Source of the DNA: a virus
Strand: one strand, 5' to 3'
UHGV virus genome: UHGV-0117537
Length of the DNA stretch: 34,981 nucleotides
Made by a program: the position numbers and the translations under genes. Positions 1,814 through 15,994 of the stretch are shown here, one piece after another (within the stretch, counting starts at the first letter, position 1; each line of letters begins with the position of its first letter). Under the pieces are notes generated by a model, which saw nothing but the letters and a program-made list of their open reading frames with translations, had not been told where the DNA came from and ran no database searches.

Positions 1814-3802
1814 TTAAAAAACATTCTTATCCCCGTGGAAAAAACGTGCAACGTTCAATAGCCAGTCGGGGGTTTTTATTTCATTTGAATTTGCTAGTAT
1901 TTCTAAATATTTTTCGCAAAATTCATTTTTTTTTCCTGGTAATTCGAAATAATCCTCAATAGCTTTTTTTTCTGTAATGTTAAGATTCAAAGCGCCTCCC
2001 GATACTGAAGACTCCATTAACTGTGGGGTTTCCATAAAGGACAAACTAGTTTCTCCTTTAGTGTAAAGCATTTTCAGAGTTTCTACGTAGAAATCAGCAT
2101 TAAGAGACTGCTCAATTTCTGTAGGTGGATAAACTCGATCATCAGTAACTTTAACAAGGCTTATATTAGATAAGTCTTTATCGAGCAAGAGTCTTCTTAT
2201 TTTTATACTTGGTATTGTATCTGTAGCATCATATGGACTATATTTGTGATCTGTATCTAATAATAATAATACTTTTCCTGAGATTGTTGCTTTGCGATCC
2301 TCTAACGCCATAACGAGTAAATTATATATTTTTTTTACTGTAGGGGAGCCACCGACGGATAAAACTATTAGTTTCTCAATGTTTTCATAATCCAAGTGAG
2401 CGGAAATATATTTTCTATCAGTTTTTCCTTCGCACAATATCCAGTTATAATTATTTCCAGATGTTATTGAATAAACAATTGATTGTGCTAAGTCGTGATT
2501 GCTTTTCATTTCTAAAACGTCAAGGCAAGAGCCATTTGACTCTTTTGCTAGTTCCTTTAATTCATCCTTGTAGTTTTCCAGATCGAGTGCTTTGATGTAT
2601 GTTTGAGAGGGGGAAATATATATGGCTGTACCTGAGCCTGTAACAGGTAAAAAACCATACCAATGAGTTGTACAAATAGTCTGTATGCCTAGGTCGCTAA
2701 TTTTTTTTATTTTATCAAATTGATTAAAACATGATGTGGCATGTAAGGATAATTCAGGTTCATCAACAGCAAGAATTGTTGAGTGCTGAGATTTTTGTGG
2801 ATTATGTTTTAAGAAATTGGTAGCAAGATCTAGCAATGCTTTTCTTTTTTCTCCTGAGCTTAAATTTTGCACAGGGGTATCTTTATTAACATCATCAATA
2901 TGATGTAATATTTTATCACTAAAATATGATTCAATTATTTTAGATATCATATGACGTTGAGTGAAACTATTTTGTCGCTGAGATGGTTTTTTAAATTGAT
3001 ATCGCCCCTCAAGCTTTGTAGTTAATTGTCTAATAAAATCATTTAAGTGCGAATTTATTGCTGTAATATCCTTTTTCTTAATGATTTTACTGATTTTTTG
3101 TTGGAGATTTTCACCTAATAAAGACTGTAATAAATCGCTTTCAATCCTTGAGTATTCGGATGTGGTTATTTCTGCAGGTAGGTAAATATAATTATAGATA
3201 TCCTTAATTGTTATTAATAGCTTAGGTAGTATATTGTTAAAATGATATTTTTTATTATTCGTCGAACTATTTTCATTTGCGAGATCATCAATTTGCAATC
3301 GATAATCATCTATAGATTCGAAAATTGACATGTAGGGGCGAGGAATATCATTTGCAGTTTCTTTTATTATCCCAAGGGGAATTAATAAATATTCATCTGA
3401 AGAATATTTGTATTCTAGTTGCTTCCTGTGTGATATAAATTTCTCAGCTATAGGACGTTGCAATGTATTAAAAACTTCACTTTCTATTTGCCAAGTGATA
3501 TCGCTTACGATTTCTAATGCTTTGTATAGGGAATTATTTATCTTTAGCTTGTTTTTATTTATTAAATAAATTGGCACAATGAATGGTTCTCGAGTATCGA
3601 AACCTTGACTGCGCGCTTCATTGTTGATATCAAGTCTATTGATATCAGTTTTATTTAGTACAATATCTAATGCTTGTAATATTGAGCTTTTCCCGACACC
3701 ATTTTCACCAATGAGCCAAGAGGATTTATTGTTTAAAGTGAGTGGGATATAATGTTGATTTTTGAAATTCTTGAAATTTCGTAAAATAACACCAATAATC
3801 AT
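1814..3802 (-). CDS. OLD-family ABC ATPase-TOPRIM nuclease-like protein (class 1 OLD-like; fused PARIS-like not excluded); candidate anti-phage defence cargo
   Basis: 662 aa; Walker A GENGVGKSS near N-terminus, ABC signature LSSGEKR, Walker B/D-loop ILAVDEPELSLH, H-loop TTHW, then C-terminal TOPRIM-like motifs ILCEGKTD and LLLDTD; gene visibly AT-rich relative to flanking phage genes; sits between cI and int. Confidence 0.65.
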   Translation of the reverse strand: MIIGVILRNFKNFKNQHYIPLTLNNKSSWLIGENGVGKSSILQALDIVLNKTDINRLDINNEARSQGFDTREPFIVPIYLINKNKLKINNSLYKALEIVSDITWQIESEVFNTLQRPIAEKFISHRKQLEYKYSSDEYLLIPLGIIKETANDIPRPYMSIFESIDDYRLQIDDLANENSSTNNKKYHFNNILPKLLITIKDIYNYIYLPAEITTSEYSRIESDLLQSLLGENLQQKISKIIKKKDITAINSHLNDFIRQLTTKLEGRYQFKKPSQRQNSFTQRHMISKIIESYFSDKILHHIDDVNKDTPVQNLSSGEKRKALLDLATNFLKHNPQKSQHSTILAVDEPELSLHATSCFNQFDKIKKISDLGIQTICTTHWYGFLPVTGSGTAIYISPSQTYIKALDLENYKDELKELAKESNGSCLDVLEMKSNHDLAQSIVYSITSGNNYNWILCEGKTDRKYISAHLDYENIEKLIVLSVGGSPTVKKIYNLLVMALEDRKATISGKVLLLLDTDHKYSPYDATDTIPSIKIRRLLLDKDLSNISLVKVTDDRVYPPTEIEQSLNADFYVETLKMLYTKGETSLSFMETPQLMESSVSGGALNLNITEKKAIEDYFELPGKKNEFCEKYLEILANSNEIKTPDWLLNVARFFHGDKNVF

Positions 3803-3822: not shown

Positions 3823-4413
3823 TTATTTACAGGTCATAATCACTTTAGCGATGATATTAACATCACTGATATTGCACTCTATTTTTTTTGATTTTGACTC
3901 TAGCATTATGCGGTTATTAGGTAACCTCATTAATTCTCGAACAGAATATATACCGTCAATGGCAATCAACCATAACCCATCATCAATCTCATCCACACCT
4001 CGTCTCACGACATAAGTTATATGCTCATGCTCAAGAGCTGAGATATCTTTTAGGTCATTTGGCAATAGTGATAAATCAAAAATTAAATAGCCATTATCAA
4101 TCAGTTTGCCATCGATAATTTTCTCTCTGGTCAGGCTTACAACATGCGATTTTGCATCCACATACATGGGGCCTTCAGCTGCGGATAGCCAACGAAGTGA
4201 AATACCTGTTTCTAACGCACATTGAATTATCCAATCAGCGGGGAATGTATCTCTCATATATCGATTAGCTAACGTGCTTTTAGAAACACCAAGATGTTCA
4301 GCCAAAGCCTGTCGTGTCGTAAAGCCATAAGCTTCGACTAATCGCTCAATCGCAGCCTTACCACCTTTATTGGGATTTATTTTGATCTCACTTGGGTACT
4401 TTGATGTTGACAT
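3823..4413 (-). CDS. cI: Prophage immunity repressor, 186 CI-like (HTH N-terminal domain)
   Basis: 196 aa; N-terminal HTH (FTTRQALAEHLGVSKSTLANRYMR); divergent from Apl/CII-like genes; size matches 186-type CI rather than 99-aa P2 C. Confidence 0.75.
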   Translation of the reverse strand: MSTSKYPSEIKINPNKGGKAAIERLVEAYGFTTRQALAEHLGVSKSTLANRYMRDTFPADWIIQCALETGISLRWLSAAEGPMYVDAKSHVVSLTREKIIDGKLIDNGYLIFDLSLLPNDLKDISALEHEHITYVVRRGVDEIDDGLWLIAIDGIYSVRELMRLPNNRIMLESKSKKIECNISDVNIIAKVIMTCK

Positions 4414-6336: not shown

Positions 6337-6563
6337 TGGCTGATGCAATGGATCTCGTACAGCAGCGAGTTGAAGAAGAACGCCAGCGTCATATCCGTGC
6401 TGCCCGTGCCAAAACGCCGGGCGTGTCCCGCGTGCTTTGCGTTGAGTGTGAAGCGCCAATTCCGCCAGCACGCCGCCGTGCCATTCCGGGTGTGCAACTT
6501 TGCATTACCTGTCAGGAAATCGCAGAGCTGAAAGGCAAACATTACAACGGAGGTGCTGTATGA
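6336..6563 (+). CDS. TraR/DksA-family C4 zinc-finger protein (P2 orf82-like)
   Basis: 75 aa with CxxC...CxxC (CVECEAPIPPARRRAIPGVQLCITCQ) characteristic of TraR/DksA zinc fingers found in P2-like early operons. Confidence 0.75.
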   Translation: MADAMDLVQQRVEEERQRHIRAARAKTPGVSRVLCVECEAPIPPARRRAIPGVQLCITCQEIAELKGKHYNGGAV

Positions 6564-7417
6564 GCACCATCCTGAAATGGGCGGGAAATAAAACCGCCAT
6601 TATGTCCGAACTGAAAAAACATCTTCCTGCTGGTCCGCGACTGGTTGAACCTTTCGCGGGTTCCTGTGCAGTGATGATGGAGACGGATTACCCCAGCTAT
6701 CTTGTTGCGGATATTAATCCTGATTTAATCAACCTCTATAAAAAGGTTGCTGCTGATTGTGAGGCGTTTATATCTCGTGCCAGAGCTTTATTTGAGGAAG
6801 CAAACAGAGAGGTGGCTTATTACAACATAAGGCAGGAGTTTAATTACTCCACTGAAATTACTGATTTCATGAAAGCGGTATATTTTCTGTATCTCAATCG
6901 TCATGGTTACCGTGGGTTATGTCGTTATAACAAGAGCGGGCATTTCAACATTCCATACGGTAATTATAAAAATCCGTATTTCCCTGAAAAAGAAATTCGC
7001 GCATTTGCAGAGAAAGCCCAGCGAGCAACGTTTATCTGCGCCAGCTTTGATGAAACGCTGGCGATGCTGCAGGTGGGGGATGTGGTGTATTGCGATCCGC
7101 CTTATGACGGTACGTTTTCCGGCTATCACACTGATGGTTTCACTGAAGATGACCAGTATCACCTGGCATCTGTTCTTGAATATCGATCATCAGAAGGTCA
7201 TCCAGTCATTGTTTCTAACAGTGACACATCCCTGATCCGTTCGCTGTATCGAAATTTCACTCACCACTACATCAAGGCAAAACGCAGCATCGGCGTGTCG
7301 GCTGGCGAGAGTAAATCTGCAACAGAAATCATTGCTGTTTCCGGGGCGCGCTGCTGGGTGGGATTTGATCCTTCGTGTGGCGTGGATAGTTCTGCTGTGT
7401 ACGAGGTGCGTGTATGA
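6560..7417 (+). CDS. dam: DNA adenine methyltransferase (Dam-like, N6-adenine)
   Basis: 285 aa from internal ATG of ORF 6500-7417; N-terminal KWAGNK and FAGSCAV (AdoMet-binding) motifs and catalytic DPPY ([12 protein letters not shown]). Confidence 0.85.
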
Positions 7418-9828
7418 GTCATGACGATATGAGCAACTCTAGCGGCTTTAACGAGGCCGCTGTAGCATTTTCATGGAACGGCCCGAAAAAGGCCATTAAC
7501 CCTTATCTGGACCCGGCGGAAGTTGCGCTGGAGTCTGCACTTTCAAACCTGATCACTCTGTACGCTGCCGATAATGAGCAGGAACAGCTGCGCCGCGATG
7601 CACTGAGTGAGCAGGTCTGGGAGCGTTATTTCTTTAATGAATCCCGTGATCCTGTCCAGCGTGAAATGGAGCAGGATAAGCTCATTAGTCGGGCAAAGCT
7701 GGCGCATGAACAGCAGCGTTTTAACCCGCACATGGTCATTCTGGCGGACGTCAGCGCCCAGCCTTCCCACATCAGCAAGCCGCTGATGCAACGTATCGAA
7801 TATTTCAGCAGCCTGGGCAGGCCAAAGGCTTATTCTCGCTATCTGCGTGAGACGATTAAGCCATGTCTGGAACGACTGGAGCATGTACGCGACAGTCAGC
7901 TATCCACTTCTTTTCGCTTTATGGCAAGCCATGAAGGGCTGGACGGCCTGCTGATCCTGCCTGAAATGAGTCAGGATCAGGTGAAACGCCTGTCTACCCT
8001 TGTCGCTGCGCATATGAGCATGTGTCTTGATGCCGCTTGTGGTGATTTGTACGCCACCGATGATGTTAAGCCAGAAGAAATCCGCAAGACATGGGAAAGG
8101 GTGGCAGCGGAAACCCTACGTTTGGATGTCATCCCGCCTGCGTTTGAGCAACTCCGTCGGAAAAGAAACCGCCGTAAACCAGTGCCCTATGAACTCATTC
8201 CGGGCTCGCTGGCGCGTATGCTGTGCGCCGACTGGTGGTATCGGAAATTGTGGAAGATGCGTTGCGAATGGCGGGAAGAGCAGTTGCGTGCTGTCTGCCT
8301 GGTCAGCAAAAAAGCATCTCCCTATGTCAGCTATGAAGCTGTGATGCATAAACGTGAGCAGCGCCGTAAGTCGCTGGAGTTTTTCCGTTCTCATGAACTG
8401 GTGAACGAAGACGGAGACGCGCTGGATATGGAAGATGTGGTAAACGCCAGCTGCAGCAACCCGGCGCATCGCCGCAATGAGATGATGGCCTGTGTTAAAG
8501 GTCTGGAGCTTATCGCGGAAATGCGCGGTGACTGCGCCGTTTTCTACACCATTACCTGTCCGTCACGTTTCCATTCCACGCTAAATAACGGCAGACCCAA
8601 CCCGACCTGGAAAAACGCGACGGTAAGACAAAGCAGCGATTATCTGGTCGGTATGTTTGCTGCATTTCGTAAGGCGATGCACAAAGCCGGGTTGCGCTGG
8701 TATGGCGTGCGGGTGGCTGAGCCGCATCACGACGGCACAGTTCACTGGCACCTGTTGTGTTTCATGCGCAAAAAAGACCGCCGCGCCATTACTGCATTGT
8801 TGCGTAAGTTTGCTATCCGTGAAGACCGCGAGGAGCTGGGCAATAACACGGGGCCGCGCTTTAAGTCTGAGCTGATTAACCCGCGCAAAGGAACGCCGAC
8901 AAGCTACATAGCGAAATACATCAGTAAGAACATTGACGGGCGTGGTCTGGCTGGCGAGATCAGCAAGGAAACGGGTAAATCTCTTCGTGATAACGCTGAA
9001 TACGTGAATGCCTGGGCGTCTTTGCATCGTGTTCAGCAATTCCGCTTCTTTGGTATTCCGGGGCGTCAGGCTTACCGTGAACTGCGATTGCTGGCTGGTC
9101 AGGCGGCAAGGCAGCAGGGTGACAAAAAAGCAGGTGTGCCGGTACTGGATAACCCGCGCCTTGATGCCATTCTGGCTGCTGCTGATGCTGGTTGTTTTGC
9201 CACCTATATCATGAAGCAGGGAGGTGTACTGGTTCCCCGTAAATATCACCTCATCAGAACTGCTTATGAAATTAACGAAGAGCCGACCGCCTATGGCGAT
9301 CACGGTATTCGTATTTATGGCATCTGGTCACCCATTGCAGAGGGCAAGATCTGCACTCATGCAGTGAAGTGGAAAATGGTTCGTAAGGCCGTTGACGTTC
9401 AGGAGGCGGCAGCCGACCAGGGCGCTTGCGCCCCTTGGACTCGTGGCAATAACTGTCCCCTTGCTGAAAATTTGAACCAACAAGGGAAAGACAAATCAGC
9501 TGATGGGGACTCCAGAACGGATATTACCCGTATGAATGACAAGGAGTTGCACGATTACCTGCACAGTATGAGCAAAAAAGAGCGCCGGGAACTGGCTGCA
9601 AGGTTACGCCAGGTGAAACCGAAACGGCGTAAAGACTACAAACAGCGAATTACAGACCATCAGCGACAGCAGCTCGTCTATGAACTGAAGTCCAGGGGAT
9701 TTGATGGCAGCGAGAAAGAAGTCGATTTGCTCCTTCGCGGCGGCAGTATTCCGTCAGGAGCAGGCCTGCGTATCTTCTATCGGAACCAGCGTCTGAAGGA
9801 AGATGATAAGTGGCGGAACCTGTATTAA
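7414..9828 (+). CDS. A: Rolling-circle replication initiation endonuclease (P2 gpA-like)
   Basis: 804 aa; conserved HWH-type metal motif (TVHWHLLCF) and active-site tyrosine region ([14 protein letters not shown]) typical of P2 A / phiX174 A family; position after early operon. Confidence 0.88.
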
Positions 9829-10179: not shown

Positions 10180-10413
10180 ATGCGCATTGAAATAATGATC
10201 GATAAAGAGCAGAAGATTAGCCAGTCTACCCTGGACGCCCTTGAATCCGAGCTTTACCGCAATCTGCGCCCCCTGTATCCCAAAACGGTAATTCGCATTC
10301 GCAAAGGTAGCTCTAACGGTGTGGAACTAACCGGACTGCAACTGGATGAAGAAAGAAAACAAGTGATGAAAATTATGCAGAAGGTGTGGGAGGACGACAG
10401 CTGGCTGCATTAA
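10180..10413 (+). CDS. DinI-family protein (Tum C-terminal-like / DinI-like)
   Basis: 77 aa from internal ATG of ORF 10108-10413; MRIEIMIDK...SWLH resembles DinI family (MRIEV... start, acidic C-terminus). Confidence 0.75.
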   Translation: MRIEIMIDKEQKISQSTLDALESELYRNLRPLYPKTVIRIRKGSSNGVELTGLQLDEERKQVMKIMQKVWEDDSWLH

Positions 10414-10605: not shown

Positions 10606-10941
10606 TTACGAATGATCATTCTGTTTAGTCTTCATGAGAAAATCCCGAATCTTTGCCAAGTTTGAATTTTCGGGGATTGAATCCATGTACGGATCACGCT
10701 CAAACACTAATTGCTCAGATTCAACGAAAGCCTGCCACTCTACTGGGTCTAGCTCAAATCCCATTGCTGTCATATCACTTTCATCTTCCCCCTCGATCCA
10801 GTGGACTAAATAAAACAATTCATCATCAGGAGAATCATCCTCACCATCAACAATATCAACATCGGTTACAGTGATACGTAGGGTGGGATCGATTTTTGAG
10901 ACATAAATTCCTAACTGTGGTATAGGGGGAATATTGTTCAT
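10606..10941 (-). CDS. Hypothetical acidic protein (orphan, accessory)
   Basis: 111-aa ORF on opposite strand to surrounding genes; strongly acidic (runs of D/E: DGEDDSPDDE, EGEDESD); no family recognised. Confidence 0.45.
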   Translation of the reverse strand: MNNIPPIPQLGIYVSKIDPTLRITVTDVDIVDGEDDSPDDELFYLVHWIEGEDESDMTAMGFELDPVEWQAFVESEQLVFERDPYMDSIPENSNLAKIRDFLMKTKQNDHS

Positions 10942-11320
10942 GGAAACTCCTTTTATTGGTGTTTGCTATTTGAATAAAAATACGCCAAACAGAGTGTTAA
11001 CTGTGAATATGGAAAGAATCGTTGTAAGTACCCCGCTTAGGTGTCCCATTCTATTTTAGAGGTTCTCGTGCATATGGATTATGTTATCTGAAAGCTAACT
11101 TCCGCTTCCCGTTCACAGCGAACATTCATCTTTGTAAACCCGTATGATCCGTTTTTCAAGTGGCCATTCAGATACGGATTTTCACTTCCTTGACAGTGCA
11201 TGACTATGCTGCATGAAATCGCATGATCGATTGAGGATCGTCTTTGCTCAGATCCGCCAGAACTGGCGGGCTTTTGCTCATGTCATGCATGTGCATGAAA
11301 ACCACTGCATAAAGCGGGCA

Positions 11321-11340
11321 GGCGTGGCGGGGATACGAGC
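11321..11340. other. Candidate cos (cohesive-end) site
   Basis: GGCGTGGCGGGGA... resembles the 19-nt cohesive ends recalled for 186/P2 (GGCG(T/A)GGCGGGGAAAGCA); GC-rich island in otherwise AT-rich intergenic region between A-side genes and portal side. Confidence 0.3.
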
Positions 11341-11415
11341 GCGCGGAAGCAGTTTCACATGTAATTCGATTGGTGTAATCTAAACTACAACTTAAGAAAA
11401 GAGAATGAGTAAACC

Positions 11416-13155
11416 ATGGAATTGCACGCATATACTAGAACCATATCAGAATTACTTTCGGTTAATAGAAAATATGTTGTCCCAAGATTTCAGCGAGAAT
11501 ATTCTTGGGTAAAAGAACAAATTAATGAGCTTTGGTATGATGTAATATCTAATATCAAATTAGAGAATGATTTCACATATTCTAATAATGAGTATTTTAT
11601 TGGTTCTTTAGTTTTAGTTGGAGATGAAACAGGAAGGGAAATGCAAATAGTTGATGGTCAGCAACGACTTACAACTCTTACGATTTTTCTTTCCGTTTTA
11701 TGTGAGGCGTTCAAGCTAAACAATCAATCAGATTTAGCATCTGCTCTATTTGAAAATTATATTGAAGGTCGTGATGATGATGGTAAGAAATTTTTTAAGC
11801 TAATAAATGAAACACCTAAGCCTTTTTTTCAGAAAAATATCCAACACCTTAATAAGGCAGATGACGCACCCCAGACACAAGAGGAGCGAAATCTCTTGTC
11901 TGCATATAAGGAAATTACATCGTTAGCCTCAAAGGAAAAATTGGGAAAGCATTTTTCAGTCGAAATTAATACTGAAGATAATTATTCCAGTGTATTAAAA
12001 GCAATTAGGGATCAGATTTTAAGATTTCTTAAGATAATTTTTATTACTGTTAATGAAGAGGACGAGGCGTATACAATATTTGAAACATTAAATGCGAGAG
12101 GGATGAATTTAAGTTTTGTAGATCTAATTAAAAATAAATTATTTAAAGCGTTAAACAACCCTCATCCAAATGATGATGCAAAAGATAATTGGAAGGCTAT
12201 ACGTACTACTTTAATGCAAAGAAATGGTGTAGGGACTTTTGAAAATTTCATGAGGCACTGGTGGGTGTCGAAGTATGCTTACGTGAGCAATGAAAATCTT
12301 TATAAGTCCTTTATTGGAAAATGGCGTAAGGGGGAAATTAATCCGGTAACCTTTATTGAAGAATTGAAACAGGATGCCGAATTGTATGTACGCTTGTCAT
12401 CTCCTTTGGAGAGTGATTATCCACAAATGGAAGATAAACAGATATTCCATTCGTTGAATGCAATTAGGCTATTTGGTATAACGCAGTGTAGACCTTTTTT
12501 ATTAGCTTTACTAAAGGCAAAACAGCAAAGGAGATTGCGTCAATGTGATCTTTTAAAAGCAGTTAAATATATTGAAAATTTTCATTTTGTATTTAATGCG
12601 ATATGTTCATTAAGGCCGTCAGGGATAGAAGGTGCATATTCTAAGGCCGCAAGAGCAATAAATTCACCAAATGCTACAAAAGTAACTAATGGTACAACAA
12701 TTGAACAGTTATGCTTGTTGTTGAGTAACCGCAAGCCAGAAATTTCTGTATTCACTGAAAATTTCAGAGATATATTATTTACTGATGACAACTCCAAGCA
12801 AAAAAGATTGGTCCAATATATTATAAATAAATTTGAAATGGCCCGTCATAATGGAGATGAGTATCGTCCTAATTCTATTTCTTTAGAGCATATAATGCCT
12901 CAAAGTGCTGGCAACGATAAGGAAATAGGAATGATTGGAAATATAATCCCTCTGTCAAAAGAACTTAATGAGCAAGCTGGTAATAAATCATTGGCACAAA
13001 AGCTCTCTATCTATTCACAATCGGAGTTTAGATTGACGGAAGAGTTTATTAGTGAACTTGAAACCATTTACCATAATGAATGGAATCTCCAGTCTATTAT
13101 TCAGAAGACAGATAGAATGGCTGGTGAGGCTTATATGAATATTTGGAGTCATTAA
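11416..13155 (+). CDS. DUF262/DUF1524 (GmrSD/BrxU-like) type IV restriction endonuclease-like protein; candidate anti-phage defence cargo
   Basis: 579 aa; N-terminal DGQQR motif (QIVDGQQRLTTL) diagnostic of DUF262/ParB-like NTPase domain, C-terminal His-Me/HNH-like motif (ISLEHIMPQS) of DUF1524; markedly AT-rich; located between replication gene and portal gene. Confidence 0.72.
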   Translation: MELHAYTRTISELLSVNRKYVVPRFQREYSWVKEQINELWYDVISNIKLENDFTYSNNEYFIGSLVLVGDETGREMQIVDGQQRLTTLTIFLSVLCEAFKLNNQSDLASALFENYIEGRDDDGKKFFKLINETPKPFFQKNIQHLNKADDAPQTQEERNLLSAYKEITSLASKEKLGKHFSVEINTEDNYSSVLKAIRDQILRFLKIIFITVNEEDEAYTIFETLNARGMNLSFVDLIKNKLFKALNNPHPNDDAKDNWKAIRTTLMQRNGVGTFENFMRHWWVSKYAYVSNENLYKSFIGKWRKGEINPVTFIEELKQDAELYVRLSSPLESDYPQMEDKQIFHSLNAIRLFGITQCRPFLLALLKAKQQRRLRQCDLLKAVKYIENFHFVFNAICSLRPSGIEGAYSKAARAINSPNATKVTNGTTIEQLCLLLSNRKPEISVFTENFRDILFTDDNSKQKRLVQYIINKFEMARHNGDEYRPNSISLEHIMPQSAGNDKEIGMIGNIIPLSKELNEQAGNKSLAQKLSIYSQSEFRLTEEFISELETIYHNEWNLQSIIQKTDRMAGEAYMNIWSH

Positions 13156-13160
13156 TAGTT

Positions 13161-13195
13161 AAATGCCCTATTATTATATCAGTAATAGGGCATTT
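13161..13195. terminator. Perfect 13-bp stem hairpin between convergent genes (possible bidirectional terminator)
   Basis: aaatgccctatta / ttatatcag / taatagggcattt; lies between stop of 11416-13155 gene and stop of portal gene; no clear U-tract. Confidence 0.35.
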
Positions 13196-13199
13196 GAAA

Positions 13200-14231
13200 T
13201 TACTCCAACACGTAATTGCCAAATGAAATTATTGGCTCCCCAATCCATTTGTTTAATTCGCATATGAGTTTTTGTAAGGGAATTAACTCGTTTCTTACAA
13301 ATACCTTACTAGCTTTCTCTACATCCCCAAATCCCCCGACATTATTTGGCATTATCCCCATCATTTGCGGCGGCACTCGGTGTGCTGCCATCATGTCATC
13401 GCGGCTGACATTTTTGATATTCAGAAACTCATCCTTTGCCGCAACTTCTGACAAAGGGATGATCTGAAGGCCGTCCTTTTTGCCGTTAGGCGAGTACATA
13501 AACAGGTTGCGGAAGTTGCCTGGACCTTTGGCGCTTTTCATCGCGTTGCGGAGGTTGTTCACATCCTCCTGATTCTGCGCGGCGTCGGTCATGTACATGA
13601 TGAAGCCTGCATGGCTGCCGTTGATGTAATACTTACGGCGGAATAGCGTGGCGGATTCGTTGAGCAGGGCGGATGGAATGGCAGAAAGATAGCCGGGCAG
13701 GCCGTAGATCTCCTGGTTGATGTCCGGTTCCATCAGATGAAAAATGCTGCCTTTCGTGAACTGATACGGCTGGGTTGTCATGCCGTATTGCACAAACCAG
13801 TAGGTATCCAGGTCTAACCCGCGTCGGGTGTATTTTGCCAGCGCAGGCTCAAGGGCGATAACTTCACCGAATCGGTTCGTGCGTTTCTCCAGGTAGGCGT
13901 TACCAAATACCAGATAGTCCTGCACAAAACGCGAAAAAGCCTGCTGGCTGAGCAGCGGATGAGGGATATAGGTACTGGTCAGAATGTTGCACTTTACTGC
14001 AATCGGGGAACTGTGATGCACGGCAGCGCGGAAGGTGCGCGCCAGTCCGTCAAAGCTGACGGGCGGCTCATACCAACGGTCCATCTGTACGCATTCCACA
14101 TAGTCCAGCAGTTCTCGGCGGTCCAGAACAGGAACGGGATCGCCGAAGCTGAATGCTTCGGCTGTAGTCTGGCTTTTAAGCTGGATCTGTTTCGTCGCCG
14201 CAGCGCGGTTCTTCTTACTCTTTCCCATCAA
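13200..14231 (-). CDS. Q: Portal protein (P2 gpQ-like)
   Basis: 343 aa, size and position (adjacent to, and co-oriented with, terminase P) match P2 Q. Confidence 0.9.
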   Translation of the reverse strand: MMGKSKKNRAAATKQIQLKSQTTAEAFSFGDPVPVLDRRELLDYVECVQMDRWYEPPVSFDGLARTFRAAVHHSSPIAVKCNILTSTYIPHPLLSQQAFSRFVQDYLVFGNAYLEKRTNRFGEVIALEPALAKYTRRGLDLDTYWFVQYGMTTQPYQFTKGSIFHLMEPDINQEIYGLPGYLSAIPSALLNESATLFRRKYYINGSHAGFIMYMTDAAQNQEDVNNLRNAMKSAKGPGNFRNLFMYSPNGKKDGLQIIPLSEVAAKDEFLNIKNVSRDDMMAAHRVPPQMMGIMPNNVGGFGDVEKASKVFVRNELIPLQKLICELNKWIGEPIISFGNYVLE

Positions 14232-15994
14232 AAAATCTCCACAATATTGCTGGTATTGGCGGATTCGCCCTGCAGCGGTTCGTTAAACAGTGCGTGCATT
14301 GTTGCCCAGGCCAGATCGGCGTGGCTGGCTTCTTCGCTGCGGCTGGCTTCATAGGTCGGGCGGTTGCCGCTGGCGGTGGTTGCGCGACGGATTGCCATGA
14401 ATGACTGCGCAATGTCGGTGTGTCCGGCGTCAAACTCCAGACGGCGGTGGCTGATAATGTCGTAGGCCTTGAGTACCAGGGCATTTTTAACATTGGGGTT
14501 ATAGACAAACTCCCGGACGGCAGGAAAGAACGCTTTCACGTTCTCATAAACCCCGTGACCAACGCCGGTCGAGTCGATACCGATATACGTAACGTTGTAC
14601 TGTTCGGTGAGTTTTTTGATGGCGTCAGCCTGGGCGCGGAAGTCCATCCCGCGCCACTGGTGACGCTCAAGAATGCGGAACTTACCACCCGGCACGGCTG
14701 GCGGAGCCACCACCACGCATCCGGCACTGTCGCCGTTCTGCGTACCTTTTGCCGGGTCATAACCGATCCACACTTCGCGCCAGCCAAACGGGCGCAGCGC
14801 CAGTGCATGAAAGTCGGTCCAGACTTCCCAGCTGTCCACCATGCACGCCTGTAGCTCGCTGAGCGGAAACACGGACGCGAGATCGTCCACGAACTCACAC
14901 ATCAGCAGGTTCTGGTATTCGTCCGGGCTGTACTCCATGCGCAACTGGTCGAGATCGAACAGGTTACAGCCGCCGCGCACCGCATCTTCCACGGTGACTA
15001 TCTGGCGGTATTGCCCGTCTGCGCACAGCAGGCCGGGGGCCAGATTGCTGTGGGACAGGTCGATGTCCACCTTGTCAGCTTTGTTGCGCCCACGGTTGAA
15101 CAGCGCACCGGACCAGAACGGATAAGCACTGTGGGTCAGACTGGATGGTGTGGAAAAATAGGTCTGCCGCCATTTCTTGTGAATAGCCATACCGGAAGCC
15201 ACTTTGCGTAGCTCCTGAAATTTCGGTATCCAGAAATATTCATCCAGATACAGGTTGCCGTGATAACTCTGGGCCGTGCGGGCATTGGTGCCGAGGAAGT
15301 AAAGCGTGGCCCCGTTAGGAAGCACCATCGGATCGCCTTTCAGCTCCACCTCCACTTCTTTGGCGAAGTCGATGATGTACTGCTTAAAGACGTGGGCCTG
15401 TGCCTTACTGGCGGAAAGGAAAATCTGGTTACGCCCGGTAAGCAGGGCGTCAATCAGGGCTTCACGGGCAAAGTAAAAGGTCGCGCCGATCTGGCGTGAC
15501 TTCAGCAGGTTGCGGATGCGGTTGGTTTTTCCGGCTTCCCACCAGTGGCGCTGGTAGTTGAACATGGAGGAATGGAAGATTTCTTCCAGCTTCTCAATCT
15601 GTTCATCGGTGAAGACATTTTTTTCCGGCTGACGGCGCGGGCCTTTGTTGCGGTTGGCGACGTTAGGGTTTAAGTCGGCTTCGTTGCCGCCATTGTTAAA
15701 CTTGCCGATCCGCGCGTGGCGCTCAGACTGGCGCGCCAGCAGGTCAATCTCTTTGAAATCTTTCCCTTCTTTGTGCTCCTTCATAATGAGCTGGCAGTAG
15801 CGTGCGGCGGTGGTGAGCTGCATCTGATCCAGCGGCCCATAGTCACCCCACTTGTCGCGTTTTTTCCAGCTGTGAACGGTTGCAACTTTCTCGCCCAGCA
15901 TTTCAGCAATGCGGGCTACGCGGTATCCCTGAAAGTACAGCAGCATGGCCTGCCGACGGGGATCGAGATCTGCGGGTGTCAGTGTGGTGTTCAT
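14228..15994 (-). CDS. P: Terminase large (ATPase) subunit (P2 gpP-like)
   Basis: 588 aa; start overlaps Q; size matches P2 P (about 590 aa). Confidence 0.92.
   Translation of the reverse strand: MNTTLTPADLDPRRQAMLLYFQGYRVARIAEMLGEKVATVHSWKKRDKWGDYGPLDQMQLTTAARYCQLIMKEHKEGKDFKEIDLLARQSERHARIGKFNNGGNEADLNPNVANRNKGPRRQPEKNVFTDEQIEKLEEIFHSSMFNYQRHWWEAGKTNRIRNLLKSRQIGATFYFAREALIDALLTGRNQIFLSASKAQAHVFKQYIIDFAKEVEVELKGDPMVLPNGATLYFLGTNARTAQSYHGNLYLDEYFWIPKFQELRKVASGMAIHKKWRQTYFSTPSSLTHSAYPFWSGALFNRGRNKADKVDIDLSHSNLAPGLLCADGQYRQIVTVEDAVRGGCNLFDLDQLRMEYSPDEYQNLLMCEFVDDLASVFPLSELQACMVDSWEVWTDFHALALRPFGWREVWIGYDPAKGTQNGDSAGCVVVAPPAVPGGKFRILERHQWRGMDFRAQADAIKKLTEQYNVTYIGIDSTGVGHGVYENVKAFFPAVREFVYNPNVKNALVLKAYDIISHRRLEFDAGHTDIAQSFMAIRRATTASGNRPTYEASRSEEASHADLAWATMHALFNEPLQGESANTSNIVEIF

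Follow-up and report, generated by a model that had tools for sequence, protein, structure and literature searches.

A divergent HEC-06-type DUF262/DUF1524 gene forms a single-gene cassette between cos and the portal gene of a P2-like prophage

What is a very AT-rich gene doing between the cohesive-end site and the portal gene of a P2-like prophage, and on what would its product act? The locus lies in the UHGV virus genome UHGV-0117537 (34,981 nucleotides, the whole of which we call the window), whose source is a P2/186-like prophage of E. coli. A complete open reading frame with an ATG start (11416–13155, plus strand) encodes 579 residues, exactly where a first-pass annotation made from the DNA letters had placed a candidate type IV restriction protein. 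That annotation had also called the gene very AT-rich, and the composition count agrees: 33.2% GC (GC3 26.9%), set against ~51–57% in the flanking phage genes (GC/GC3 of 52.9/56.9 for gpA, 51.0/61.9 for the portal gene and 56.5/69.8 for the terminase) and 50.5% over the whole window. By our own arithmetic, ~7.4% of random codons would be stops at the base composition of the gene, and the chance of a 579-codon open frame is ~4e-20. The frame is intact and strongly conserved over homologues that are 49%–100% identical; the 100%-identical NCBI protein is an E. coli 'DUF262 domain-containing protein'. NCBIfam returns a DGQHR-domain match that is sub-threshold only (21 bits against a cut-off of 59), and the protein therefore carries no curated NCBI family name. 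The gene is real and intact, foreign in composition and self-contained, and is best explained as a horizontally acquired single-gene cassette.

The protein is differentiated into three parts. Profile searches place the proposed pair of DUF262 and DUF1524 domains far above the Pfam cut-offs: a DUF262/GmrSD_N ParB-like NTPase domain at residues 10–243 (11443–12144, plus strand; PF03235, E 1.2e-38, 133.6 bits against 33.2, full profile 1–199) and a DUF1524/GmrSD_C His-Me finger nuclease domain at residues 442–569 (12739–13122, plus strand; PF07510, E 2.4e-15, 57.1 bits against 23, profile positions 3–136 of 138). Between them lies an all-α-helical linker (residues 244–441; 12145–12738, plus strand), recognized from the AF2 model and from collinearity with the tested HEC-06 representative, which extends to at least residue 410. 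The AF2 model is confident (pLDDT 85.8), showing a mixed α/β DUF262 domain, the helical linker (helices at 254–451, pLDDT mostly >85) and a ββα-Me domain.

All three motifs that define DUF262 (QR, DGQQR and FxxxN; PMC11411939) are found on the plus strand. The QR motif (P23-R24-F25-Q26-R27, 11482–11496) aligns with DndI without gaps, F25 taking the position of the phosphorothioate-sensing tyrosine of DndI (Y25) and SspE (Y30). The NTP-hydrolysis motif DGQQR (D80–R84, 11653–11667), which had been spotted near the N terminus, is equivalent to the site at which R87A abolishes the ATPase of DndI; FxxxN is present as F222-E-T-L-N226 (12079–12093), with F222 and N226 invariant. LEHIMPQS, likewise reported earlier near the C terminus, lies at residues 490–497 (12883–12906) and opens the ββα-Me core (12883–12975, plus strand). 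In the AF2 model, L-E491-H492 ends strand 1 (489–492), G508-N509 precede strand 2 (510–513) and N518 sits in the helix (515–521), giving the H…N…H/N pattern of His-Me fingers with H492, N509 and N518. The catalytic motifs (QR, DGQQR, FxxxN and E-H…N…N) are all invariant across 46 homologues, as is G508; the catalytic histidine, H492, is thus retained.

To which subfamily does the pair belong? The first-pass annotation had proposed a GmrSD/BrxU-like protein; the domain pair survives closer inspection, and the subfamily does not. The best full-length profile is the PADLOC HEC-06 model PDLC04154 (1e-92, residues 3–578 against profile positions 7–565 of 569), followed by two further HEC-06 models, PDLC04155 (1.5e-90) and PDLC04157 (5.6e-90). 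As these three are nearly equal (300–310 bits), the protein forms a subcluster of its own. It shares its top PADLOC pair, PDLC04154 and PDLC02687, with the tested HEC-06, WP_096851903, to which it aligns collinearly over ~400 residues (~28% identity, E 1e-32); this comparison covers the first 399 residues of WP_096851903, the last ~160 being compared through profiles only. PADLOC DndI-family ('Orf5') models also match the full length of the protein, with the models that DndI itself matches best (PDLC02701/PDLC02695) reaching 134/164 bits against 310 for HEC-06, and the PADLOC type IV model matches the N-terminal domain only (2.8e-14). Taken by itself, the DUF262 domain is equidistant (29%) from HEC-06 and DndI. 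Significant PDB fold matches of the AF2 model are limited to DndI (4e-16, TM 0.55), SspE (TM-score 0.42) and BrxU (1e-5, TM about 0.3), in that order. DndI is also the best PDB sequence match (3e-15), and a PDB sequence search with the 579-residue protein does not retrieve BrxU at E≤1. With BrxU unretrieved by sequence and weakly matched in fold, a placement in the BrxU or classical GmrSD subfamily was rejected. The protein is best read as an ordinary, divergent addition to the known HEC-06-type defence nucleases of the GmrSD superfamily.

The position of the gene is equally well defined. Replication endonuclease gpA (7414–9828, plus strand; PF05840 at 5e-127) forms the left edge of the gpA–gpQ cos-proximal hotspot, which Rousset et al. 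2022 defined (PMC9122126) and which is rich in defence genes. The portal gene (13200–14231, minus strand; PF04860), a homologue of P2 Q and 186 W annotated as 'portal protein' in related loci, is the right edge of the slot. Between them, a 19-nt cohesive-end sequence, GGCGTGGCGGGGATACGAG, marks the phage cos at 11321–11339, 95 nt ahead of the ATG. In 186 the annotated cos reads GGCGTGGCGGGGAAAGCAT, and the P2 right-end flank with cos aligns to 11291–11333. At six other loci the cos motif likewise precedes the start of the DUF262 gene by 94–95 nt, and both this spacing and the slot are kept in lineages diverged to 55% protein identity. No RNA family reached its gathering score when Rfam was run against the whole window, so the conserved ~150-bp non-coding block upstream of the gene, at 11195–11353, is not a known RNA; it is the cos region. 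Locating gpA, cos and the portal gene bears out the placement of the gene in the A-to-Q defence hotspot of a P2-like prophage. The accompanying remark that this region holds tin/old in P2 is right for the hotspot and wrong for the exact place: tin/old occupy the interval from A to cos, with leftward transcription, whereas the 579-residue gene lies between cos and Q.

Homology to prophages with other cargo stops 6–8 nt past cos, and a cassette-specific AT-rich leader occupies 11340–11415 (plus strand). This leader holds weak candidate sigma-70 promoters (TTCACA-16-TAATCT, 11354–11381; GTTTCA-16-TGTAAT, 11352–11379; score 8/12), which fall short of the threshold used in a standard promoter scan. 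That scan reported none upstream of the gene, and the sites it did report are no commoner than in shuffled sequence; a promoter in the leader is a weak candidate at best. At the other end, the palindromic hairpin of the first-pass annotation proves to be a 17-bp stem (13159–13197, unstranded) with a perfect 13-bp inverted repeat inside it (13161–13173/13183–13195) and a free energy of −20.9 kcal/mol, for which z = −6.85 relative to shuffled sequence. The hairpin takes up the 44 nt between the convergent stop codons of this gene and the portal gene, and has no canonical T-run. Cassettes with other cargo have different hairpins at the same place, and the stem, a putative terminator, belongs to the cargo cassette. 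The cassette is composed of the leader with its candidate promoter, the gene and the hairpin, running from 6–8 bp past cos to the portal stop.

In sibling E. coli prophages that share this cos and portal, the slot is occupied by a GTP pyrophosphokinase gene or by one for an Sll1717 ATPase, and the cos–Q interval of P2 and 186 is only ~170 bp of non-coding DNA. Cargo between A and cos varies independently of the DUF262 gene. A 111-residue acidic ORF on that side (10606–10941, minus strand) was considered as a partner or antitoxin and rejected, being also found beside other cos–Q cargo and giving way to different genes where the neighbouring DUF262 copy is identical or 96% identical. These comparisons show the published gpA–gpQ hotspot to be two independently varying slots, one on each side of cos, with the cos–Q slot hosting single-gene cassettes that each have their own leader and terminator. 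Table S5A of PMC9122126 already lists 'DUF262/DUF1524' arrangements, including WP_094658700 and WP_000422658 (96% and 55% identical to the 579-residue protein, respectively); the pair is absent from the eight additional P2-hotspot systems tested according to the main text of that paper.

The gene is rare, present in 10 of 5426 complete E. coli genomes, where matches rise to 1268 once the flanks are part of the query; one of four close copies in such genomes is interrupted by IS2. Homologues occur in P2-like prophages of E. coli and Klebsiella, lambdoid Klebsiella prophages, an Aeromonas P2-like prophage, a Pectobacterium island and two cyanobacterial chromosomes, and none >30% identical was found in deposited phage genomes, so that this collection offers no isolated phage with the gene. 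In all contexts examined the homologue is a single cargo gene lacking a modification partner, and no companion gene is consistent across the loci. There are no dnd, ssp or BREX genes beside the homologues (~20 loci), and dndBCDE/sspABCD are absent from the window and from within 6–10 kb of the homologues examined. Judged by genomic context, this suggests single-gene action.

HEC-06 (Hma-embedded candidate 06) provides the experimental reference. A 2024 preprint (bioRxiv 10.1101/2024.01.29.577857) validated this GmrSD-like gene as a stand-alone defence gene with WP_096851903 from E. coli MOD1-EC1687, which works by itself in E. coli K-12 devoid of restriction systems and loses defence in the mutants Q79A/R80A and E471A/H472A. 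The counterparts of these residues here are Q83, R84, E491 and H492, all invariant. HEC-06 reportedly blocks T4. A Bacteroides homologue with 22% identity stops T-even phages but does not stop the unmodified mutant T4-GT7; modification dependence in the HEC-06 family has been shown in vivo only, for this one distant homologue.

We regard it as very probable that the product is an intact defence nuclease of the GmrSD superfamily and that the gene works without a partner. The best explanation, which we hold with moderate confidence, is a stand-alone, horizontally acquired HEC-06-type defence cassette restricting hypermodified DNA; that hypermodified DNA is the trigger, an assignment by analogy, we would put marginally lower. 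In the lysogen, the protein would most likely restrict hypermodified (T-even-type) phage DNA in a modification-dependent manner, a type IV activity that we infer from relatives 22–28% identical. The protein would be expressed by the lysogen. By analogy with BrxU, SspE, DndI and the HEC-06 mutants, its DUF262 domain would bind and hydrolyse NTP via QR, DGQQR and FxxxN, and would serve as the DNA-modification sensor and switch. Entering hypermodified DNA, most likely carrying the glucosyl-hydroxymethylcytosine of T-even-type phages, would act as the trigger; the DUF1524 His-Me finger (E491/H492, N509 and N518) would then nick or cleave the modified DNA, and infection would be stopped while unmodified host and prophage DNA is spared.

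The alternative that survives best, albeit unlikely, keeps the defence nuclease and its fold and changes the trigger, which could be a protein of the phage, an intermediate of replication or foreign DNA that lacks modification, perhaps with abortive infection in place of type IV restriction. Consistent with this, the subfamily is very divergent from enzymes of known specificity, and the available part of Payne et al. (bioRxiv 10.1101/2024.01.29.577857) gives HEC-06 a defence profile unlike that of BrxU and names none of the phages that it blocks. However, all characterized DUF262/DUF1524 enzymes (GmrSD, BrxU, TgvAB, SspE and DndI) read DNA modification, and the one HEC-06-family homologue compared on T4 and T4-GT7 is modification-dependent.

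The proximity to DndI raises another reading, improbable in our view, in which the protein is a phosphorothioate (PT)-sensing effector of the SspE/DndI kind: PT marks put on self DNA by a host dnd/ssp system would switch the nuclease, and PT-free invaders would be restricted. DndI is the top PDB match in sequence and fold, SspE ranks ahead of BrxU, 'Orf5' models cover the full length and the DUF262 domain is as near to DndI as to HEC-06. Against this, the window and the ~20 homologue loci are devoid of adjacent dnd/ssp genes, and the gene travels as a lone cassette in prophages across several genera. Self DNA must carry PT for DndI to leave it alone, and DndI is toxic where PT is lacking (PMC11662687); such harm to its own cell sits poorly with a mobile single gene that is widely conserved. 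Bit scores for the true DndI models lie well below those for the HEC-06 models, down to less than half. The residue at the sensing position (Y25 in DndI; PMC11662687) is an invariant phenylalanine in this clade and in HEC-06, a weak argument given that phenylalanine could line a hydrophobic pocket.

Similarly doubtful is that the protein is a type IV-style enzyme attacking a different mark on incoming DNA (phosphorothioate or deazaguanine, for example, in place of glucosyl-hmC), or that it uses a self mark placed by the prophage's own Dam-type methylase; the idea arises because the clade is nearer in sequence and fold to DndI/SspE than to GmrSD/BrxU yet travels alone in prophages. An inactive relic, or a passenger with no current function, is very unlikely. 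The rarity of the gene, the IS2 in one close copy and the failure to find a strong promoter would suit a relic, but the frame is intact, no catalytic residue varies among 46 homologues with identities as low as 49%, and slot and cos spacing are conserved at 55% protein identity. Some cos phages, for example HK97, require an HNH endonuclease beside the terminase/portal genes for cos cutting. Such a packaging accessory would suit an HNH/His-Me finger gene directly between cos and the portal–terminase operon, but we reject it as barely credible: P2 and 186 package normally with their short non-coding interval, and the gene is replaced by other cargo in siblings with the same cos and portal, is foreign in GC3 (27% against 62–70%), has homologues outside phages and is present in 10 of 5426 E. 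coli genomes where 1268 match the flank-including query.

The gene adds one more divergent variant to the large GmrSD-like family. Current understanding is left unchanged: domain pair, family and hotspot have each been described before. A lysogen with the gene may resist T4-like phages, which is relevant to phage therapy and strain engineering. Were the protein to read a different mark, its specificity would be new among stand-alone DUF262/DUF1524 enzymes.

Among known systems, HEC-06 shares with the protein a single polypeptide of DUF262, helical linker and DUF1524, the DGQQR motif, the E–H dyad and a phenylalanine before QR; the gene tested there lies within an Hma system, whereas here the gene is cos–Q cargo of a P2-like prophage. 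DndI of S. enterica Cerro 87 (PDB 9JFL, PMC11662687; PADLOC 'Orf5') is the closest solved structure in both sequence and fold, comparable in length (596 against 579 residues), domain order, DGQQR and HNH domain. It differs in being encoded in a dnd cluster and co-transcribed with dndFGH, a context missing here, in having Y25 where this protein has F25, and in a C-terminal domain that aligns weakly (5 bits). SspE (PDB 6JIV, 7DRS) likewise combines a DUF262 N-terminal domain bearing DGQQR with a DUF1524 nuclease, but is larger (~770 residues), coupled to sspABCD and alignable in sequence over the first ~100 residues only. The mark that DndI and SspE recognize is phosphorothioate on self DNA, and neither is a type IV enzyme; GmrSD and BrxU are of type IV, cutting glucosyl-hmC or hmC DNA. 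The Pfam domain pair is common to GmrSD (E. coli CT596, Eco94GmrSD), BrxU (PDB 7P9K) and this protein, which has NELWYDV in place of the RLFDS motif of BrxU and no BREX genes in its window. P2 tin/old are unrelated in protein and share the published hotspot and the character of lysogenic-conversion-type cargo; Tin blocks the growth of T-even phages, and the benefit proposed here for the lysogen would be similar, by another mechanism.

The open reading frame at window positions 11416–13155 (+) runs from an ATG and encodes 579 residues, with coordinates identical in the ORF list to those of the first-pass annotation, and the two motifs reported there are present: DGQQR at residues 80–84 and LEHIMPQS at residues 490–497. 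Pfam profiles recover the matching domains, DUF262 (GmrSD_N, PF03235; residues 10–243, E = 1.2e-38) and DUF1524 (GmrSD_C, PF07510; residues 442–569, E = 2.4e-15), both far exceeding the curated cut-offs. The gene is AT-rich as described, at 33.2% GC and 26.9% GC3 against 51–57% and 57–70% in flanking phage genes; by our own calculation, the chance that a frame stays open for 579 codons at this base composition is ~4e-20. The 44-nt gap between its stop codon and that of the convergent portal gene is occupied by the flanking hairpin also noted earlier (17 bp, 13159–13197, −20.9 kcal/mol, z = −6.85). The observation is borne out completely: the DUF262/DUF1524 feature is real and was interpreted correctly.

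In PADLOC, the protein best matches models of HEC-06, a stand-alone GmrSD-like defence gene, over its full length (1e-92, 1.5e-90 and 5.6e-90), followed by 'Orf5' models; SspE and type IV models cover the N-terminal domain only. The DndI N-terminal domain scores 437 bits on the Orf5 model PDLC02701, so Orf5 represents the DndI family. The window protein shares its top pair of models, PDLC04154 (HEC-06) and PDLC02687 (Orf5), with the tested HEC-06 protein, which scores 551 and 465 bits on them; DndI's own best models give the window protein only 134–164 bits. The tested HEC-06 protein is collinear with the window protein over ~400 residues at 28% identity, and the DUF262 domain alone is 29% identical to HEC-06 and 29% to DndI. 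A PDB sequence search returns DndI first (9JFL, 3e-15) and SspE next, with BrxU absent at E ≤ 1. The AlphaFold model (46 homologues, pLDDT 85.8) comprises a DUF262 domain, a long helical linker and a ββα-Me domain, and has only three significant fold matches in the PDB: DndI (4e-16, TM 0.55), SspE (~1e-14) and BrxU (~1e-5). Profile, sequence and fold matches therefore place the protein in the HEC-06/DndI/SspE branch of the GmrSD superfamily, where it is nearest the HEC-06 profiles and occupies its own subcluster. As a side point, the scores of tested HEC-06 mean that the two PADLOC sets overlap, and annotation could mistake a stand-alone HEC-06-type gene for a dnd-associated Orf5 or vice versa.

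A 100%-identical E. coli protein is named 'DUF262 domain-containing protein' at NCBI. Relatives of 76–83% identity occur in Klebsiella, Leclercia, Enterobacter and Hafnia, and those of 50–53% in many cyanobacteria (full-length, among homologues P0041–P0120; Leptolyngbya, Stanieria, Calothrix, Trichocoleus and others). The cyanobacterial relatives suggest a fairly recent inter-phylum transfer, and low GC fits a foreign origin. In all contexts read the gene is unaccompanied: the slot between cos and the portal gene (Q) of P2-like prophages, lambdoid Klebsiella prophages, a Pectobacterium island, cyanobacterial chromosomes (toxin–antitoxin genes adjoining) and, in a P2-like prophage of Aeromonas, the interval from CI to integrase. 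In none of these is it next to dnd, ssp, BREX or Hma genes. It is rare, with the gene or its 55%-identity sibling in 10 of 5,426 complete E. coli genomes, and no homologue above 30% identity was found in deposited phage genomes. Complete E. coli genomes contain four close copies (~94% nucleotide identity), one of them interrupted by IS2 (NZ_CP019944.1 3055571–3058646; matches H1 and H41).

Across 46 homologues of 49–83% identity, the invariant residues are P23, R24, F25, Q26 and R27, the D80–R84 DGQQR motif, F222, N226, E491, H492, G508, N509 and N518. They include counterparts of the DndI positions mutated in R87A and N541A, and of HEC-06 Q79, R80, E471 and H472, at which alanine substitutions abolish defence (Payne et al. 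2024, bioRxiv 10.1101/2024.01.29.577857). Model pLDDT drops below 50 inside the protein only at residues 223–231 (window 12082–12108), an invariant E-T-L-N-A-R-G stretch directly after F222 that may form a mobile loop at the nucleotide site.

That preprint showed that HEC-06 needs no partner gene to work in E. coli K-12 devoid of restriction systems, and that both the DGQQR motif and the E–H dyad are required. According to a later study, T4 is blocked by HEC-06; the same work shows that a Bacteroides homologue of 22% identity confers protection from T-even phages, though not from T4-GT7, a mutant with unmodified DNA. In the wider family, DUF262 is viewed as an NTP-driven modification sensor and DUF1524 as a nuclease (PMC11411939, PMC11662687). 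DndI harms cells lacking phosphorothioate (PT; PMC11662687); for that reason, cells would not tolerate a DndI-like enzyme as an intact lone mobile gene. The HEC-06 data, the family roles and the intact lone mobile gene thus make a stand-alone, modification-dependent (type IV) restriction enzyme the best-supported reading; its domains, motifs, fold, lone-gene context and position are established by the analysis, whereas its expression, substrate and phenotype we infer. Such an enzyme would shield the lysogen against phages whose DNA is hypermodified. A protein of the same fold answering to another trigger is unlikely. That it is a PT-sensing effector, which structural proximity to DndI and SspE supports, is improbable given its genomic context, its profile scores and F25, which replaces the PT-sensing tyrosine of both proteins and is likewise phenylalanine in HEC-06. 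A relic is very improbable, the catalytic residues being invariant.

The window is a P2/186-like prophage, with an integrase (688–1743, −), a 186-type CI repressor (3823–4413, −), gpA (7414–9828), a 62-residue ORF, a DinI homologue (10180–10413), a 111-residue acidic ORF (10606–10941, −), the DUF262 gene, portal (13200–14231, −) and terminase (14228–15994, −), with late genes beyond. The non-coding block 5′ of the DUF262 gene, conserved in many P2-like phages regardless of cargo, is the cos region: window 11291–11333 aligns with the P2 right end and P2 cos sequence, and a 19-mer at 11321–11339 (GGCGTGGCGGGGATACGAG) agrees over its first 13 bases with the annotated cos of 186 (GGCGTGGCGGGGAAAGCAT) and is followed by a GCGCG run, as in P2 and 186. 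P2 carries tin and old between A and cos; from cos to Q, both P2 and 186 have only ~170 bp of non-coding DNA. The proposed A-to-Q hotspot placement therefore stands, but the equation with the tin/old position does not: the DUF262 gene lies across cos from them, at the far left of the genome as packaged.

Cassette boundaries were drawn from seven related loci. Homology among prophages with different cargo ends 6–8 nt past the cos 19-mer and restarts at the portal stop codon; each cargo type brings its own AT-rich leader and hairpin. Cargo in the cos–Q slot (window 11340–13199) consists of single-gene cassettes. Sibling E. coli prophages share the A, 62-residue, DinI, 111-residue and cos layout, and in place of the DUF262 gene carry a GTP pyrophosphokinase or Sll1717-family ATPase. 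The 100%-identical DUF262 copy has a HEPN_LA2681 gene at the 111-residue ORF's place in the A–cos interval, and the 96%-identical copy is adjoined by a DUF2971 gene. Cargo is thus swapped on either side of cos independently, which rules out the 111-residue ORF as a partner of the DUF262 gene; on these comparisons, the published gpA–gpQ hotspot in fact comprises two independently varying slots. The varying cos–Q content, and its absence from P2 and 186, make a packaging HNH nuclease extremely improbable. The distance from cos start to the DUF262 ATG is 94–95 nt in three lineages, whose proteins are 96%, 82% and 55% identical to that of the window; this constancy suggests that the gene has long resided in the slot.

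Other genes merit description. A second AT-rich cargo gene (1814–3802, −; 31% GC, GC3 24%), between integrase and CI, encodes a 662-residue AAA_15/AAA_21 ABC-type ATPase matching AriA (1e-23, residues 1–380) and Old (1e-17, residues 287–496) in PADLOC; P2 Old is only 23% identical over 170 residues, and no PDB relative was found by sequence. We regard it as a probable single-gene defence candidate resembling OLD/PARIS. The Aeromonas prophage carries a 52%-identical DUF262/DUF1524 gene in this same slot (locus L021, 10001–11746), so the int–CI interval seems to be a further hotspot for cargo in 186-like prophages. The 111-residue ORF corresponds to WP_001059831, a protein found commonly in P2-like prophages of E. 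coli; it matches phrog_17127 (2e-70), a family of unknown function, and nothing in Pfam or PADLOC. Its charge (26 D+E against 7 K+R, pI 4.05) is compatible, speculatively, with a DNA mimic or anti-restriction protein. Directly 5′ of gpA, and overlapping its start, lies a gene for a D12-class (Dam-type) N6-adenine methylase (6500–7417, +; PADLOC 'orphan MTase', 5e-112), which also occurs in related 186-like loci.

The gpA–gpQ hotspot is known from Rousset et al. 2022 (PMC9122126), whose Table S5A already lists 'DUF262/DUF1524' arrangements with WP_094658700 and WP_000422658, 96% and 55% identical to the window protein. DUF262 is unmentioned in the main text of that paper and does not figure in the eight further P2-hotspot systems that the text reports testing. 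Validation of the HEC-06 family comes from Payne et al. 2024. The window protein is therefore a further member of a known family, to which we make three modest additions: its placement in the DndI/SspE-proximal branch and not the BrxU branch, its location on the Q side of cos, and the cassette anatomy of the cos–Q slot.
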